Below are positions 1,171 to 61,257 of a stretch of 64,000 bases of DNA, one piece after another (positions within the stretch are counted from its first letter, which is position 1; each line of letters opens with the position of its first letter). The notes under the pieces were generated by a model. That model saw only the letters and a list, made by a program, of their open reading frames with translations. It was not told the DNA's origin and made no database searches. The translations under genes were made by a program, and so were the position numbers. The stretch comes from Octopus vulgaris (lineage: Eukaryota): assembly GCA_951406725.2 (NCBI GenBank), contig OX597843.1, forward strand, positions 20,336,001-20,400,000. Direction: 5' to 3'.

Positions 1171-1634
1171 GTATTTTAGGAATGGTCATTTTGCCAGTTT
1201 GACCAATAAGAACGCACGCACTATATATTTGGTGTTACTTTGCTTCAGCGTTATTTCTTTTTTAAATTAATCTTAATCTTATTTCGGCCAGAGTTCTTTC
1301 GTCACACTCTTGTGACCTCATCAGTGGTCCTTTGCTTTTTTCTTTCATATTTGTGTGTCTCTCCTTACTAACGGTCAGTCATTTTGTATTTTGCATTTCT
1401 ATTGTTTGTGTCTTCATTTGCGCATGTGTATACCTCTATATGGGTCTATGTGTGTGTGTGTGGGGAAAGTGCCTGTAATATTTGTATCTCCTGTTTATAT
1501 ATGTTCGAAATAACTGTGGCCGAAATAACATTAAGCTTAATGTAAAAATTAAATAACGCTGAAGCAAAGTAACACCAAAGATATAGTGCGTGTGATTTAT
1601 TGGCAAAACTGGCAAAATGACCATTCCTAAATAC
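1171..1634. mobile_element. Penelope-type terminal-repeat relic with ~130-bp inverted arms
   Basis: 1171-1301 (gtattttaggaatggtcattttgccag...tttcg) is the imperfect reverse complement of 1506-1634. It overlaps a hammerhead motif. Confidence 0.65.
1288..1327 (-). ncRNA. Minimal type I hammerhead ribozyme motif (slightly degenerate)
   Basis: Minus strand: cca CTGATGA g gtcaca agag tgtgac GAAA gaac TC tgg. Helix I cca/tgg; 6-bp helix II preceded by one extra G. Confidence 0.65.
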
Positions 1635-2028
1635 AAGAATATATATATATATATATATACATATGTGTGTATGTGTGCGTGTGTGTGTGTGTGTGTATGT
1701 ATGTGTGAGTGTGTGTGTGTACATACACACATCCACCTATATACCTTATCAAACCCTGATGTATAAACGCACACACTCACTTCCAGGCCACACATATATT
1801 CCCACTTTCTTACACACAGGCAAACATAAATTGAAAGACAATATGAATTGTAGAAGAATGAGGGTAAATAAAGAAGATAAGAGAGACATTTAGTTTGTGG
1901 AAATGACATTGGATGACATATCGTGATCTTATTATGAAGAAGATGACTAACATAAGAGAAAGTCTCCCGCCCCTAAGCCCTAGACCATCACCTAATCACT
2001 CTTATCCGTCTTGTTGCCCAAACCGCAA

Positions 2029-2260
2029 CATCGACATCATCACCATAATCATCATCATCATCATCATCAGTAGTAGTAGTAGTAGTAGTAGTAGTAGTAG
2101 TAGTAGTAGTAGTAGTAGTAGTAGTAGTAATAGTAGTAGTATTTGTAGTAGTAGAAGAAGAAGAAAAAGAAGAAGAAGAAGAAGGAGATGATGATAACGA
2201 TGATGATGATGATTATGAGGATAACGATGATTAGCAACAACAACAGCAACAACATTAAAA
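2029..2260. repeat. Compound trinucleotide microsatellite (CAT)n(AGT)n(GAA)n(GAT)n(CAA)n
   Basis: Directly visible. Confidence 0.95.
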
Positions 2261-3286
2261 CAACAATAAGAGAAGTGGCAGAAAATGTAGGAGCTGAAGA
2301 AAAGAATGATGTAAAAAATAAGGAGGAAACGAAGGAGTCTGTCATGAAGAAAACTTAAATATATTATTTCTGATCTTATAATAATTCTGCTTGTCATTAT
2401 GTTAATTAGTCCGTCGGTAACGCTTTCTCGTGATTAGAGAAAAAGAGGGAGAACGAAAAAGAGCGAAAGAGAAATGTCCATGACCTGAGGTAGAAGGAAC
2501 GTGACTGTAATGCTTTCAGGTGATTAGTTGAATGGAATGAGAGACCGAGAGAAAGAAAAAGGAATGAGAAAACGAAAGTAAGTGGAAGAGTGGGGCAGGA
2601 AGAGAGGGAGAGGGAGAATAGGGGAGAGAGAAAAGAGCGAGGGAGAAAAAGAGGGAGAGGACATGTGGTAGGGGGAACGTAATACTTATTACGTGACGAA
2701 AAAGTTAGTTGAAGGTAGTGATATTGAGGAGGGTTACGAACATAATTTTAGCAGAACGGTGATGTTCTGATGGTGAGATTAAAATAAGGCAGATAGGTAG
2801 ATAAACTGAAAAAATGAAAGAAAGGGGGAATGAGAGATGGTAGTAGTGGTGGTAGTGGTTGTGGTGGAAGTGGTGATGATTAGTGTATAATGCAAAGTAA
2901 CTTTTGAATTGAACTAAGTATTTTATATCCTCTATCACTTAACACATGCTCATAAATATACACACTGATTTATGTACGCCGCATATATATATATATATAT
3001 ATATATATATATATATATATATATATATATATATATATATATATATATTACAATTAAGAAATGTTTACACTATAATTAAAATATATATATTTTAATTAAA
3101 ATAAAGTTTGACACAGTAAATTCCATCTCTACAAGATCCCGGTTGATGTTGTTACTGCTTCTCATACATTCTGCCGTTGGTTGCGCTTCCGCTATGGGGG
3201 AGTTAGAAATTCGCAGTTTACGGTTATTTGATCCTTTTTCCAAAGCTGTGCTTATGATATAAGCAAATTACAAAACTTGACTGAAG

Positions 3287-4060
3287 AATGGATAGATAAA
3301 GAAGATTAGAAGCTACTCGCGAGAGGGTTAGGCACTATAGGCAGCGGATAAGAGAAGAACAGCGGTAAGAAATCAGAGAAAGGGACAGATGGTACCAACA
3401 GATGAGAGGATCTGCAATAGATGAAGAGCAACGCAAGGCACAATTGCAGTAAGAGAGAATACGAGACCAAGGTAGAAGACAGGATGAGGAAGAACAAACA
3501 CAGTACAAGGAACAACAAAGATTGATATTTCAGCGCAGAATGGAAAACATGAATGATATGCAGCGTGCGCAATATCAGGACCAACAGAAAAATGTTATGT
3601 AACAGAGAAGGGAGAATATGGATGATTTGGAAAGGGCTGCTTGTCTCCAAGATCAAACATAGAGACATCAAGATGGAGTTGCAAGTATGAATGCTGAACA
3701 GGCATTACGTTTGCGAGATGAACAGGTGCAACGAAAGCGTGAAGCAAGACATGGAGTACCACTGAACAGACACAATAATCCTAAACGAACCTATCGTATT
3801 GGTGATATGTAATTATATTGCGAGTATTGTGGAGCACTGAACTTTAAATATGAAAACTTCATGTTCTGTCACAATAATAAAGTGAATTTTCCTCCACTGC
3901 AACTAAACTTTCAGACATTGAAGCGTTTGTGTGAGAAAATTACCAAGAGTCTGCTTCATTTCGAAAAAATCGTCAGCAATTACAACTGCATATCTTCCTT
4001 TACGTCATTTGGTGTGAAACTCTCTGTGCCGCAAGGAAGAGTTCTACATTGTTTCTGTAT
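3287..4060 (+). pseudogene. Helitron Rep/Hel N-terminal region (degenerate)
   Basis: Charged E/R-rich repeats, a Zn-finger remnant (CEYCGALNFKYE...FCHNNKVNFPPL) and NYNCISSFTSFGVK...GRVLHCFCI, matching Helitron YN..F.FTS.G...GPY.FRIQGQ. Confidence 0.75.
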
Positions 4061-4271
4061 TGTTGTGGAAGGATTTCGACCACCTTCCAATTGTCTAAAC
4101 GCGGACTGACACATTCCTATTAAATAGACAACTGTCGAGTCTTCAGCAATTATTGGAAAATAGTTCGCTGTGAGCCACTGACAGAGAGTGTTGGGTAATC
4201 GATTCGCGTCGAGTAAACACTTTCTTTCCCTCTGATTCCTTAAATCATACGTTCCAAACCAGGGTATAAAA
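4061..4271 (+). repeat. 5' LTR of Gypsy copy A
   Basis: Starts TG; homologous to 8397-8621; followed by the PBS. Confidence 0.8.
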
Positions 4272-58905: not shown

Positions 58906-60813
58906 TGTTTTAGAGAACCGGAACCAGATAACTTCACGTGTTCTTGCTATCTTATTCCGATTGATAGGTTTATCCGAGTATATAAAGGGTTTTGGAAGGG
59001 CATACGGGTGTTGATATCGGCGGGCATCGACGGGGTTAGTGTCCAGGGTCACCGAGTGGGGAGATTGTTTGTTAGATCATATACTACTTTAAAATTTGGG
59101 AGAGTAGTAGGACGATGGGTTATGCGGGATATTTTTTGTTTTATCTGGAGGACGGGCGTATTCTGGGTTCCGAGGTGAGTAGAGGGAGGCTTGTTCCACA
59201 TGGATATATTCGATCGAATTCGTATGACCGTCGCGGTGTAGGGCGTAATTATAATATTCAGCGTATTGTTCGAATATTTCCTTACTGGCGGACAGTGATG
59301 AAATCCGTTTTGATACGATATCTACGATAGACTTTAGGACAACTGGCGTTGTGGTTACAGGAAAAGTTGACGTAGTGTAGGTTCCCCTTAAGTTTATGGC
59401 ATGGGTAGAAAATTTGGCTTTGTGGATCTAGAGAAGCATTGGAGACTTTTGAAGTAGAGGTCGAGGCCAGGAGGATGAAGGCTGGCGAGAGGCTGATGAG
59501 GGTGGAAGGCGAGAAGATAAAATTGACACCACCCGAGGTGCTGGTGAACAGCGTTATGAGGAAGACAGTGACATACAGGACTGTGAGGGTCGCTACAGGA
59601 AGGATCGAGATAGCAACTGTGGAGGGGATCGAGTGGATGTTGGAAGGCATGAAAGGATGATAACCTTCGGAACAGGATGCAGGGAGTATGCAACTGTGGA
59701 TGTGAGTTTCACATCGGAGGAGGAAGCGATGAGGCATGCTACGGAGGTGGACCGCTCAGAAGAATGGATTCTTCTGGCATCCTGTTGCGGCGGTCGTGTG
59801 GCGAGGGTTCGGGTGGGCCAGGTGTCCCCTGAGCTGGAGGAGGCATGGCTGATGACGGCCAGTGTGTACAACATGGAGGACGAGGCTGGAATATTGAGGG
59901 CCACCAGAGCAAACAAGCTGCTGGGGCTGTGGGTTGGAGCTAACAATCCAGGCTAAAGTGGAGGACTTGAACGGAATGGCAGAGGAGATAGCGTTGCACT
60001 GGGAGTGAAGGTGGAAGGCAGGTCGCTTGTGTGTGTTTCGAGTGTGGCAAGGAGGGGCACATGAAGGCGAGATGCCCACGGAGGGAGCAGAGAGAGACTG
60101 AAGAGGGTGTCGAGCAGGCATTGACAGTAGAGAATAACGAGAAAACAGCGGAAGAAGAATTCACGCTAGTGGAAAGAAAAAGGAGGAGCGGTAGGGTACG
60201 TCCGCCATCGACTAACCAGAAAAAGAAGAAAGAAGAGGTGGGAAAGAAAGAGATAACGAGAAAGAAAGATGATAAAAGTGAAACGGAAAAGGAAAGTGAA
60301 AAAATAACTAAGAAGATGTGCGACAATGAGTCAGGGAAGGAGGAAGCAAGTATGAAGATGACAGGTGAATTGACGGAAGATTCAAGAACTCAACTACAAG
60401 AGGGTGAGATGGAGAAGCTGAAGACGGAGAAAGAGAAGGTCTCAGATTCAGAGAAGAGTATAGAGGAACCTATAATAAGAAAAGTAGTAAAAGAAGAAAG
60501 GAGAAGACCGAAAGAGGGTAAGAAAAAAATGTAATTTTGTGAAGTATTCTAAGAACAAGGATGTGGAGAAACAAATCGTAAAGTTCAGGCACATCATAAG
60601 GGTAAAGTTGTCAATGACGTGTACCAAGAGAGTGTGAAGGTCATTGTGGTCGATAGGGAAACCTATAAGAAACTTAGAGATATGTGCGGGGATTGAATTG
60701 ACCCGGCCAGAGCGTTGGTGGCGTTCAACGTGCTGCCCCGAGTAATTGATCTGTTAGAACTGGAGCCGTATATGTGACGTTAAAGGTGAAAAAAAGGAAA
60801 AAAGAAAGGAAAA
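58906..60813 (+). mobile_element. ORF1-only Tx1/L1-like element 2 (decayed)
   Basis: WILLASCCGGRVARVRVGQVSPELEEAWL, VKVEGR..CFECGKEGHMKARCP, FTLVERKRR and a K/E-rich tail; A-rich end at ~60789-60813; no ORF2 follows. Confidence 0.65.
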
Positions 60814-60849
60814 CGTTTCATATTTGTGTCTTATTTCGCAAGTCGACTT

Positions 60850-60939
60850 TTCCGAAGGAAATGAAGTTATAACTCAGGTAGTATAAGTTACTTTTATTAA
60901 ACGTAACTCGGCCGGGAACTTTATGATACCACTTCGTAT
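60850..60939 (+). mobile_element. Mariner 3' end with TIR (homologous to 43680-43760)
   Basis: gaagtta...ttttattaaa...ccgggaactttatgataccacttcgta. Confidence 0.6.
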
Positions 60940-61153
60940 ATATACGACAAGTTTCTAACAGTTACCGTGTAGCCAATTAACTAACATACACGGGTTTGTT
61001 CGGTTGAAGACCAGAGTACACGCAAAGGGACAGAATACAGAAGCAAAATTGTTATCACACAGACATACCAACGTCTAAGCGTATACTCACACATACACAC
61101 ACACATACTCACACATGAGGGAAATGGAAAATTGATTTTACGAGATTCGTCAA

Positions 61154-61257
61154 TCACTACGGCCGTTTCAGCCCGTCTTCAATCGGCCACTCACGGATGA
61201 GATAATGGTCGAGTGGACTCGGTGCATCTTTCTGTGCAGATGTTTCTCATCAGTTGA
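61154..61257 (-). ncRNA. Candidate hammerhead motif with extended helix II region
   Basis: Minus strand: tcaa CTGATGA g...ct GAAA cggccg TA gtga. Palindrome acggccgt; helix I/II junction pairs are imperfect. Confidence 0.5.

Follow-up and report, generated by a model that had tools for sequence, protein, structure and literature searches.

The window, a 64,000-nucleotide stretch of Octopus vulgaris DNA (contig OX597843.1, positions 20,336,001 to 20,400,000), contains 16 sites that a preliminary description had called hammerhead ribozymes. All 16 have the layout of a type I hammerhead, each on the strand originally given, and they fall into 12 families, which are named below after the position of a window copy. 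Five strict descriptors returned 4, 4, 6, 5 and 6 sites in the window, against means of 0.06, 0.02, 0.12, 0.39 and 0.13 in shuffled sequence, and none of 200 shuffles equalled the observed count for any of the five. The calls are borne out both by layout and by the shuffled-control comparison that had been proposed for them (4–6 motifs versus 0.02–0.4). One further copy, absent from the original list, lies at 50902–50952 on the minus strand. The Rfam hammerhead model gives a single match in the window, at 19.7 bits and below its cut-off of 34; as the model misses nearly all motifs of this kind, annotations undercount them. The statement that most short islands between microsatellites carry a hammerhead fails, with listed sites in 8 of the 21 islands of 100–1300 nt.

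The majority sequences of the families contain the core C3UGANGA9 (or its U3-A8 covariant), GAAA and UH in type I order. Among the 16 listed copies, six pass a strict canonical-core search and seven a wider one, and several are probably dead; the 39810 and 20671 copies deviate from the type I core, although their family majorities conform. The reported CUGANGA core stands except at 28860, 29259, 29621 and 29972, which carry UUGANAA, the known U3-A8 form. Overall, C3-G8 is exchanged as a pair for U3-A8 in at least three lineages. Helix III, described as usually palindromic, is a perfect palindrome in 7/12 families and a near-perfect one in 3/12, but is not palindromic in two (1288 and 50957). 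The six palindromes originally quoted are all located in the window, and some palindromes recur in unrelated families. In palindromic families the helix III duplex is computed to be much more stable than the corresponding hairpin, and the helix III hairpins of 18793 and 50957 are calculated to be stable on their own. Stem and loop II together span 12–77 nt, with at least 30 nt in 8/12 families, so that "minimal" misdescribes their size.

Helices I–III are paired and show compensatory change, as had been suggested, except that pairing is weak in the 61154, 11730 and 39810 window copies (the base of helix I is mispaired in 11730 and 61154). The differences between families had been read as natural covariation; since the families are unrelated, these differences do not amount to phylogenetic covariation. 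True covariation occurs within families, as compensatory changes in helix I and in the palindrome. Helix I of the 20671 family, for example, is found as CTATG/CATAG, CTGTG/CACAG or CCATG/CATGG, and the 18793 family has two perfect palindromes that differ at two mirrored positions (11/27 and 10/27 copies).

In three families the motif marks the 3' end that 5' truncation has left of a protein-coding Penelope-like element (PLE). One of these is of Neptune/Nematis type and two are of Hydra type, the clades being assigned from motifs rather than from a tree. A full-length but broken Neptune/Nematis-type element occupies 24764..28970 (+), with an upstream frame, reverse transcriptase (RT), GIY-YIG endonuclease and a 3' untranslated part of about 1 kb; it has the CX4CxxC linker and DKG. 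Its U3-A8 hammerhead (28858–28903, +), near the end of the element, represents the conserved 3' terminus of a young PLE whose 781-aa RT-GIY-YIG frame is intact. We dropped an earlier reading of this core as decayed, because it is the conserved U3-A8 form. The family ends at (TA)n in 27/30 loci, and the other three continue into a next unit. An inverted pair of truncated Hydra-type 3' ends lies at 19258..19958 (hammerheads 19319–19404, minus, and 19813–19898, plus); the GIY-YIG frame is reached in 6/20 loci of this family, which like the 28860 family encodes RT with a C-terminal GIY-YIG ahead of its hammerhead end. The third, at 39388..39477 (+) with the palindrome ACGATCGT, is an extremely 5'-truncated 3' end of a second Hydra-type PLE, matched to a Hydra endonuclease at 16/20 walked loci (endonuclease end only). 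This family seemed non-coding until a longer upstream walk met its frame. Both Hydra-type families have CxxC before the conserved E and no CCHH, and the 19816 element has DKT in place of DKG; the RWK motif was not clearly found. The association with PLE termini, which had been put forward as a check, is thus found at 28860, 19816 and 39390.

Two further families are Hydra-linked. The hammerhead at 12153..12243 (-), with the palindrome ACAATTGT, belongs to a probable sister of the 39390 family (71% identity over 223 nt). An inverted pair of a Hydra-linked unit of about 130 nt lies at 50887..51092, with hammerheads at 50958–51008 (+) and at the additional minus-strand site given above; its helix III is a true hairpin of 4 bp with an 8-nt loop. 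The 50957 unit as a fixed, parentless 130-nt element was not established: a Hydra-like RT fragment stands upstream in 2/20 loci, and a longer upstream part is common to older relatives.

Four families (18793, 20671, 29259 and 49084) are non-coding, circularly permuted monomers of 363–567 nt and are retrozyme-like. Tandem and inverted copies of the monomer of about 363 nt lie at 29033..30182, with U3-A8 hammerheads at 29259–29300 (-), 29621–29662 (-) and 29972–30013 (+); the palindrome of the last is broken, and the first two are the sole same-strand tandem pair in the window. A more-than-unit copy of the monomer of about 430 nt occupies 18538..19058 (-), with a hammerhead at 18790–18866 and a 12-nt palindrome. 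Copies of monomers of about 510 nt (20415..21068, -; hammerhead 20670–20734) and 567 nt (48790..49474, -; hammerhead 49083–49145) are each accompanied by a short inverted piece. The change to GGAA in the 20671 copy is private, GAAA being present in 17/18 family copies. For the 29259 family, a new core with insertions (CUGCAUUGAAAA) was considered and dropped; five bases along, the sequence reads UUGAAAA, helix I has a normal 6 bp and helix II (4 bp in this family) adjoins it. This register was accepted because relatives vary there at N7 (A, C or U) and covary in helix I, one pair of which is G-U, A-U or G-C.

The longest stop-free frame of the four monomers is at most 78 codons, and none has RT and C-terminal GIY-YIG upstream; no PLE-protein match was obtained upstream with three PLE protein queries. 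Computed circular folds suggest well-structured RNAs (z -3.3 to -5.5, 63–65% paired, GC 33–42%). Self-looping at about 363, 430, 510 and 567 nt was seen in 22/30, 14/25, 10/20 and 7/20 loci, respectively; loci were taken as the best matches to the window copies, which favours young copies. These families bear directly on the view that every site is the 5'-truncated end of an ordinary coding PLE, with no independent non-autonomous elements. That account is true of at least three families, and the 39390 family shows how a coding element can appear non-coding before a further upstream walk. It is contradicted in the four monomer families, where the downstream end meets the upstream start directly at a fixed period of 363–567 nt, leaving no space for a coding frame, and as a general explanation we regard it as very unlikely. 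The proposal of a population of non-autonomous modules accordingly survives for these four families and not for the three that are coding 3' ends, nor readily for the fourth that is 71% identical to one of them.

Insertions in the genome show pseudo-LTRs or partial tandems, inverted 5'-truncated partners, tails and a (TA)n target. For the 363-, 430-, 510- and 567-nt monomers, the 3' end adjoins a microsatellite in 27/30, 12/25, 8/15 (scored) and 18/20 loci and an inverted partner is present in 15/30, 4/25, 6/15 and 6/20; two clusters of 3' ends, 60–100 nt apart, are seen in three of the four families. This arrangement agrees with the tails and inversions known from PLEs. It could be argued that the monomers are satellites and owe their spread to duplication of DNA or to a LINE enzyme rather than to PLE proteins, given that the window has many LINE-type RT fragments, that local segmental duplication multiplied 11730 and 61154, and that a 7-copy array exists. 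Against this, monomer copies are scattered over many chromosomes at 91–100% identity, and their TA target, two-site 3' end and inversion match those of the genome's coding PLE families; we consider this origin extremely improbable. The link to PLEs is supported directly, for example by the three families that end coding elements. The linking of families to autonomous partners succeeded for those three, but with the three protein queries no monomer was tied to a particular PLE.

The remaining three of the 12 families are old or without a placed parent. The hammerhead at 1285..1330 (-), with a canonical core, a 5-bp helix II and a 2-bp non-palindromic helix III, belongs to a dispersed 5'-truncated family (852 first-look candidates in the genome search) in which CUGAUGA is kept in 17/24 copies and A9C occurs in 7/24. 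The motif at 11724..11827 (+) is a decayed copy of an old dispersed family whose other copies keep helices I–III intact; 39804..39907 (+), which has lost core A9, is its segmental duplicate, the two being one old insertion doubled along with a local block. A type III assignment of 11730 was dropped, as the dispersed copies are type I. The weakest site is an old hammerhead-like motif at 61152..61259 (-), with the palindrome ACGGCCGT and weak helices I and II; its best 40 matches all fall within the duplicated region of C30/C31 where 11730 and 39810 lie. Outside the families, a candidate at 55291 (with a repeat near 30460) proved to be a decayed tRNA-SINE-like repeat, the 10 copies displayed of 19 others lacking the core, and two others, at 54050 and 51821, found no support.

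The motifs might alternatively be conserved RNA folds that serve protein binding or the start of reverse transcription, with self-cleavage incidental. Such a role would fit the anole PLE, whose insertion in vitro was reported to be unaffected by hammerhead mutants (PMC11167929), the success of Naiad PLEs without canonical hammerheads, and the A9C change in the 1288 family. However, all families retain the catalytic core, and the paired C3-G8 to U3-A8 swap is what selection on catalysis predicts; we judge this explanation very improbable. It is instead highly probable that these are type I PLE hammerheads, some in truncated 3' ends of coding elements and others in monomers likely mobilised by PLEs, with the palindromic helix III predicted to pair two motifs for dimer cleavage.

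The PLE endonuclease would nick a (TA)n tract, and reverse transcription would begin internally, at either of two sites that lie downstream of the hammerhead. If it usually halts early, most insertions would retain the hammerhead-bearing end only. An inverted partner may often arise, primed from the other internal site, and repeated insertion into the same tracts could create the islands between microsatellites. Tandem copies might yield a read-through RNA with two hammerheads, whose palindromes would pair and free RNA of unit length, linear or circular; solo and decayed copies would mostly be inert. Several points count against this account. The motifs of inverted pairs cannot dimerise within one transcript, and with two families lacking a palindrome the dimer model is not general here. 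Minimal PLE hammerheads are reported to cleave weakly as dimers (PMC4209133). In the anole experiments, besides the neutral mutants, cleavage required protein and none of the RNA reads terminated at the cut site (PMC11167929). Assembled contigs from eight runs cover the 363-nt monomer and have no common stop at the predicted cut, which is evidence neither way; among runs recorded as RNA, none was found containing the stretch. The preliminary description is partly confirmed in what it observed and partly supported in how it interpreted it.

In 760 kb of sampled genome the motifs number about 28 per Mb, which extrapolates to roughly 77,000 with a wide interval (33,000–144,000). Relative to the genome average the window is about four times as rich, but it is not an outlier; the estimated density is high, and the window is unexceptional for its genome. 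The idea that this density and diversity had gone undescribed is poorly supported: Cervera and de la Pena 2014 (PMC4209133) already report that minimal hammerheads number thousands per genome, are mostly solo and vary widely (counts are about 2,000 plus 1,300 for Schistosoma mansoni, 4,000 for coelacanth and 9,000 for Xenopus tropicalis), together with opposite-strand pairs and the U3-A8 core. The derivation of animal retrozymes from PLEs is argued in the preprint of Li, Clavereau and Pollet 2026 (10.64898/2026.07.22.740005, in the part available). The element classes and the dimer idea are likewise published already. In literature mainly outside subscription journals, without supplements or Repbase, we found no account of retrozymes with PLE-type ends or of hammerheads from these families. 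Long palindromes may already be covered in the work of Lunse et al. 2017, which treats variants of PLE hammerheads.

The genome offers young, near-identical monomer families, and coding PLEs that are intact and belong to two clades sharing one target; its natural palindrome swaps could serve in assays of dimers and cross-dimers. Both the enzyme that mobilises animal retrozymes and the role of PLE hammerheads should be easier to test here. A more speculative and rather doubtful extension is that Hydra- and Neptune-type PLEs are active beside unrelated retrozymes with a PLE footprint, and that the long palindromes, under compensatory selection, act as intermolecular dimerisation addresses. If so, there would be direct genomic evidence of PLE enzymes mobilising animal retrozymes, and solo copies would cleave in trans with RNAs of matching palindrome; the recurrence of palindromes in unrelated families counts against the address idea.

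Comparison with known systems follows the available portions of the cited papers. Metazoan PLE minimal hammerheads (PMC4209133) share type I architecture, palindromic helix III and many variable families, with solo copies from truncated PLEs, opposite-strand pairs, U3-A8 and thousands per genome; the palindromes here reach 8–12 nt and stem-loop II is often 30–77 nt, and the estimate of about 77,000 comes from a different descriptor and is not strictly comparable. Animal non-LTR retrozymes, proposed to be derived from and mobilised by PLEs (Cervera and de la Pena 2020, PMC7229834; 10.64898/2026.07.22.740005), are likewise non-coding, low in GC and well folded; each monomer carries one type I hammerhead, and both tandem and solo copies occur. 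The 363-nt family resembles their canonical form (6-bp helix I, 4-bp helix II) and is the one of four within the reported length of about 170–400 nt, the other three reaching 430–567 nt. The monomers here also differ in their long loop II and long palindromes, and most of their copies consist of 1–2 units in (TA)n that show tails and inversions of PLE type, which the available portions do not describe. Retrozymes are defined with abundant circular RNA, whereas these monomers are known from genomic sequence.

Hydra and Neptune PLEs (Craig et al. 2021, PMC8557442) share the C-terminal GIY-YIG, a hammerhead near the 3' end, the (TA)n target, partial tandems and inverted 5'-truncated partners with a tail, and the Hydra motifs of two families and the CX4CxxC linker and DKG of one are as in those clades. 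The tails here are about 60–150 nt, compared with 30–40 bp, and in the Neptune/Nematis-type element a separate frame of 479 codons stands upstream, unlike the description given there. Anole Poseidon (Frangieh et al. 2024, PMC11167929) shares an AT-rich target and two internal starts that give two alternative 3' ends; internal initiation has biochemical proof in that element and a genomic footprint in the octopus.

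The hammerheads of the window are real, PLE-derived and of known kinds, and they mix truncated coding elements with retrozyme-like monomers; families are named below by the window position of their hammerhead site. All 16 sites listed in the preliminary description, each printed with fixed bounds, show the hammerhead layout on the strand given. The comparison with shuffled sequence that it proposed was carried out with five descriptors, which returned 4–6 sites versus 0.02–0.39 in local dinucleotide shuffles with microsatellites held in place (n = 200), and for each descriptor the observed count was matched by 0 of 200 shuffles. 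A wider descriptor gave seven distinct window sites versus 0.06 on average for 100 shuffles, and an Rfam search of the window a single, sub-threshold match. Several details of that description need correction. Four sites carry the U3-A8 core (UUGANAA) rather than CUGANGA, the motifs are not minimal in size, stem-loop II being long, and only 8 of 21 short islands, not most, bear a site. The layout is present in all listed copies, but several window copies are decayed; helix III is palindromic in most families but not in two. A further candidate, at 55291, was rejected as chance mimicry by a decayed tRNA-SINE-like repeat (30318–30552 and 55206–55434).

The window itself is a mosaic of (TA)n tracts, LINE-type RT fragments, PLE pieces and a Helitron fragment within a duplicated block. 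This ~9-kb block, with its Helitron-like fragment, lies at 2984–11929 and 31157–40009 (91–94% identity), and genome searches found many relatives across 18.6–21.1 Mb of the same contig (C30) and 1.0–1.3 Mb of a second (C31). The nearest copies of 11730/39810 and 61154 arose by local duplications on these two contigs; in the dispersed relatives of 11730 the helices are intact, and no dispersed relative of 61154 was found among 40 matches scored. Fragments of LINEs that include endonuclease and RT domains occupy 15335–18378 (+) and 21056–24682 (−), and they include an inverted pair, 98% identical, on either side of the hammerhead cluster at 18540–21054. Older PLE RT/endonuclease fragments on the (+) strand (13343–13697, 40053–41534 and 45353–47139; 45–65% identity to the young PLE) have no hammerhead tied to any of them, and a self-inverted element of ~330 nt flanked by microsatellites (42318–42647) is likewise without a hammerhead match.

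The GIY-YIG frame at 27300–27974 has many genomic copies, 92–98% identical, several of which lie within an open 781-codon frame. In 30 of 30 loci this element continues through ~1 kb of untranslated sequence and reaches the 28860 motif, whose core is UUGAUAA in nearly all copies; 27 loci end in (TA)n and three run into the next unit. In full copies the terminal repeat measures ~500 nt, DKG and a CX4CxxC linker are present, and a separate frame of 479 codons lies upstream (window 24833–25756 (+); 1268–2704 of genomic locus L061). The upstream frame is charged and helical-looking, then proline/histidine-rich, and overlaps the beginning of the RT frame, which is in a different phase; its window portion had no match in Pfam. 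A single frame is the usual description for endonuclease-bearing PLEs. By its sequence features the element fits Neptune or Nematis as presented by Craig et al. 2021 (PMC8557442).

In the 19322/19816 family an endonuclease frame ~640 nt upstream of the core was reached in 6 of 20 loci, and an RT frame bearing DKT was also reached; the two frames agree with Hydra. The 39390 family has a single fixed 3′ end in all 27 loci and 5′ extents of 0–700 nt; one additional upstream search met an endonuclease end resembling that of Hydra in 16 of 20 loci. The 12155 site matches this family at 71% identity across 223 nt. Units of the 50957 family measure ~130 nt, and an inverted arm accompanies them in 17 of 20 loci. 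In 2 of 20 loci a Hydra-like RT fragment lies upstream (E 0.004 against the Hydra query), and in older relatives the part upstream is longer. At two loci (L342 and L346), overlapping portions of an RT frame resembling Hydra directly abut a 50957-type hammerhead unit, a junction suggestive of template switching or of a deletion derivative.

Four families are non-coding, circularly permuted monomers, whose downstream end leads into the upstream start with a period of ~363 (29259), ~430 (18793), ~510 (20671) and ~567 nt (49084). More than one unit on one strand was seen at 22/30, 14/25, 10/20 and 7/20 loci, respectively. In one natural monomer per family, stop-free frames did not exceed 78 codons, and the circular fold was 3.3–5.5 SD better than in 60 shuffles. 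BLAST revealed no relationship among the four monomers, and three PLE protein queries found no upstream match at any of the 95 loci of these families. Their insertions resemble those of the coding families, with 3′ ends at microsatellites and inverted truncated partners, and three of the four have two 3′-end clusters. Such marks are recorded for PLEs (Craig et al. 2021, PMC8557442), and in an anole PLE two internal RT start sites account for them (Frangieh et al. 2024, PMC11167929). From this likeness we infer that the monomers may be mobilised by PLE proteins. A separate retrozyme-like monomer of ~359 nt with the canonical core forms a seven-copy array, five direct and two inverted, at 2307–4513 of locus L154; it shares loop II (CAATA) with the 29259 family and is otherwise unrelated to it.

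Structural changes within families keep pairing each time, as few independent events among related copies. Of 27 copies in the 18793 family, 11 have one perfect palindrome and 10 another, the difference being confined to two positions that mirror each other; six copies have single breaks. Three fully paired helix I versions together account for 15 of 18 copies of 20671, and the 49084 palindrome is 10 or 8 nt long. Helix I of the 29259 lineage has G-U as its third pair in 51 copies, A-U in one and G-C in one, and N7 is A, C or U. Computed helix III energies for perfect palindromes were −4.6 to −26.5 kcal/mol for the duplex versus +6.0 to −3.3 kcal/mol for the hairpin, values that fit dimer cleavage; the 1288 segment is predicted to form neither, and that of 50957 a real hairpin. 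The 1288 family is dispersed and 5′-truncated, with at most ~270 nt in common upstream and a PLE match in 1 of 20 loci, outside this common part; two loci viewed begin in (TAA)n, not (TA)n. Core A9 is C in 7 of 24 copies (e.g. loci L267, L273 and L277), and these may form a spreading sub-family whose ribozyme is impaired. Loci L092 and L016 hold an additional U3-A8 family with the palindrome ACCGGT, in which the pair at the base of helix II changes from G-C to A-U.

Genome-wide density was estimated from 76 evenly placed 10-kb stretches (759.7 kb of the 2.8-Gb genome), with four stretches flanking the window counted apart; these four gave no matches. The sample gave 21 motifs in 13 stretches, seven of them within one ~359-nt tandem array, corresponding to 27.6 per Mb or 1.8 per 64 kb with a descriptor that, composed once the window sites were known, is biased toward the window and misses decayed copies everywhere. 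Extrapolation gives ~77,000 motifs (bootstrap range 33,000–144,000); shuffled stretches gave 0–3 motifs per 560 kb (56 stretches), and the probability of at least seven motifs in a 64-kb resample is 0.08. All fetched DNA (1.85 Mb, enriched for these families) yielded 255 matches in 27 clusters, and the representative is palindromic in 21 clusters; singletons may in part be chance matches, and some clusters lump families.

Much of this has precedent. According to Cervera and de la Pena 2014 (PMC4209133), the minimal hammerheads of PLEs are widespread, occur solo and fall into many variable families; they also report motifs paired on opposite strands, the U3-A8 variant, and dimers that cleave at a low level. 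Natural core variants are recorded by Perreault et al. 2011. Mollusc Hydra elements carry hammerheads and target (TA)n (Craig et al. 2021, PMC8557442). PLEs have been proposed as the retrozyme mobiliser (Cervera and de la Pena 2020, PMC7229834), and retrozymes are derived from PLE terminal repeats according to Li, Clavereau and Pollet 2026 (10.64898/2026.07.22.740005). In the article texts searched, we found no account of the present families or of retrozymes that have PLE-type ends. For other animals, Cervera and de la Pena 2020 (PMC7229834) report >6,000 motifs in a coral, where they form 16 families, ~5,000 in a mussel and as many as 120,000 in axolotl, and a giant squid genome paper lists 235 hammerheads among non-coding RNA loci. 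Against these known systems, a modest novelty may lie in the high count, the longer monomers, the long palindromes under compensatory selection and the PLE insertion anatomy on retrozymes.
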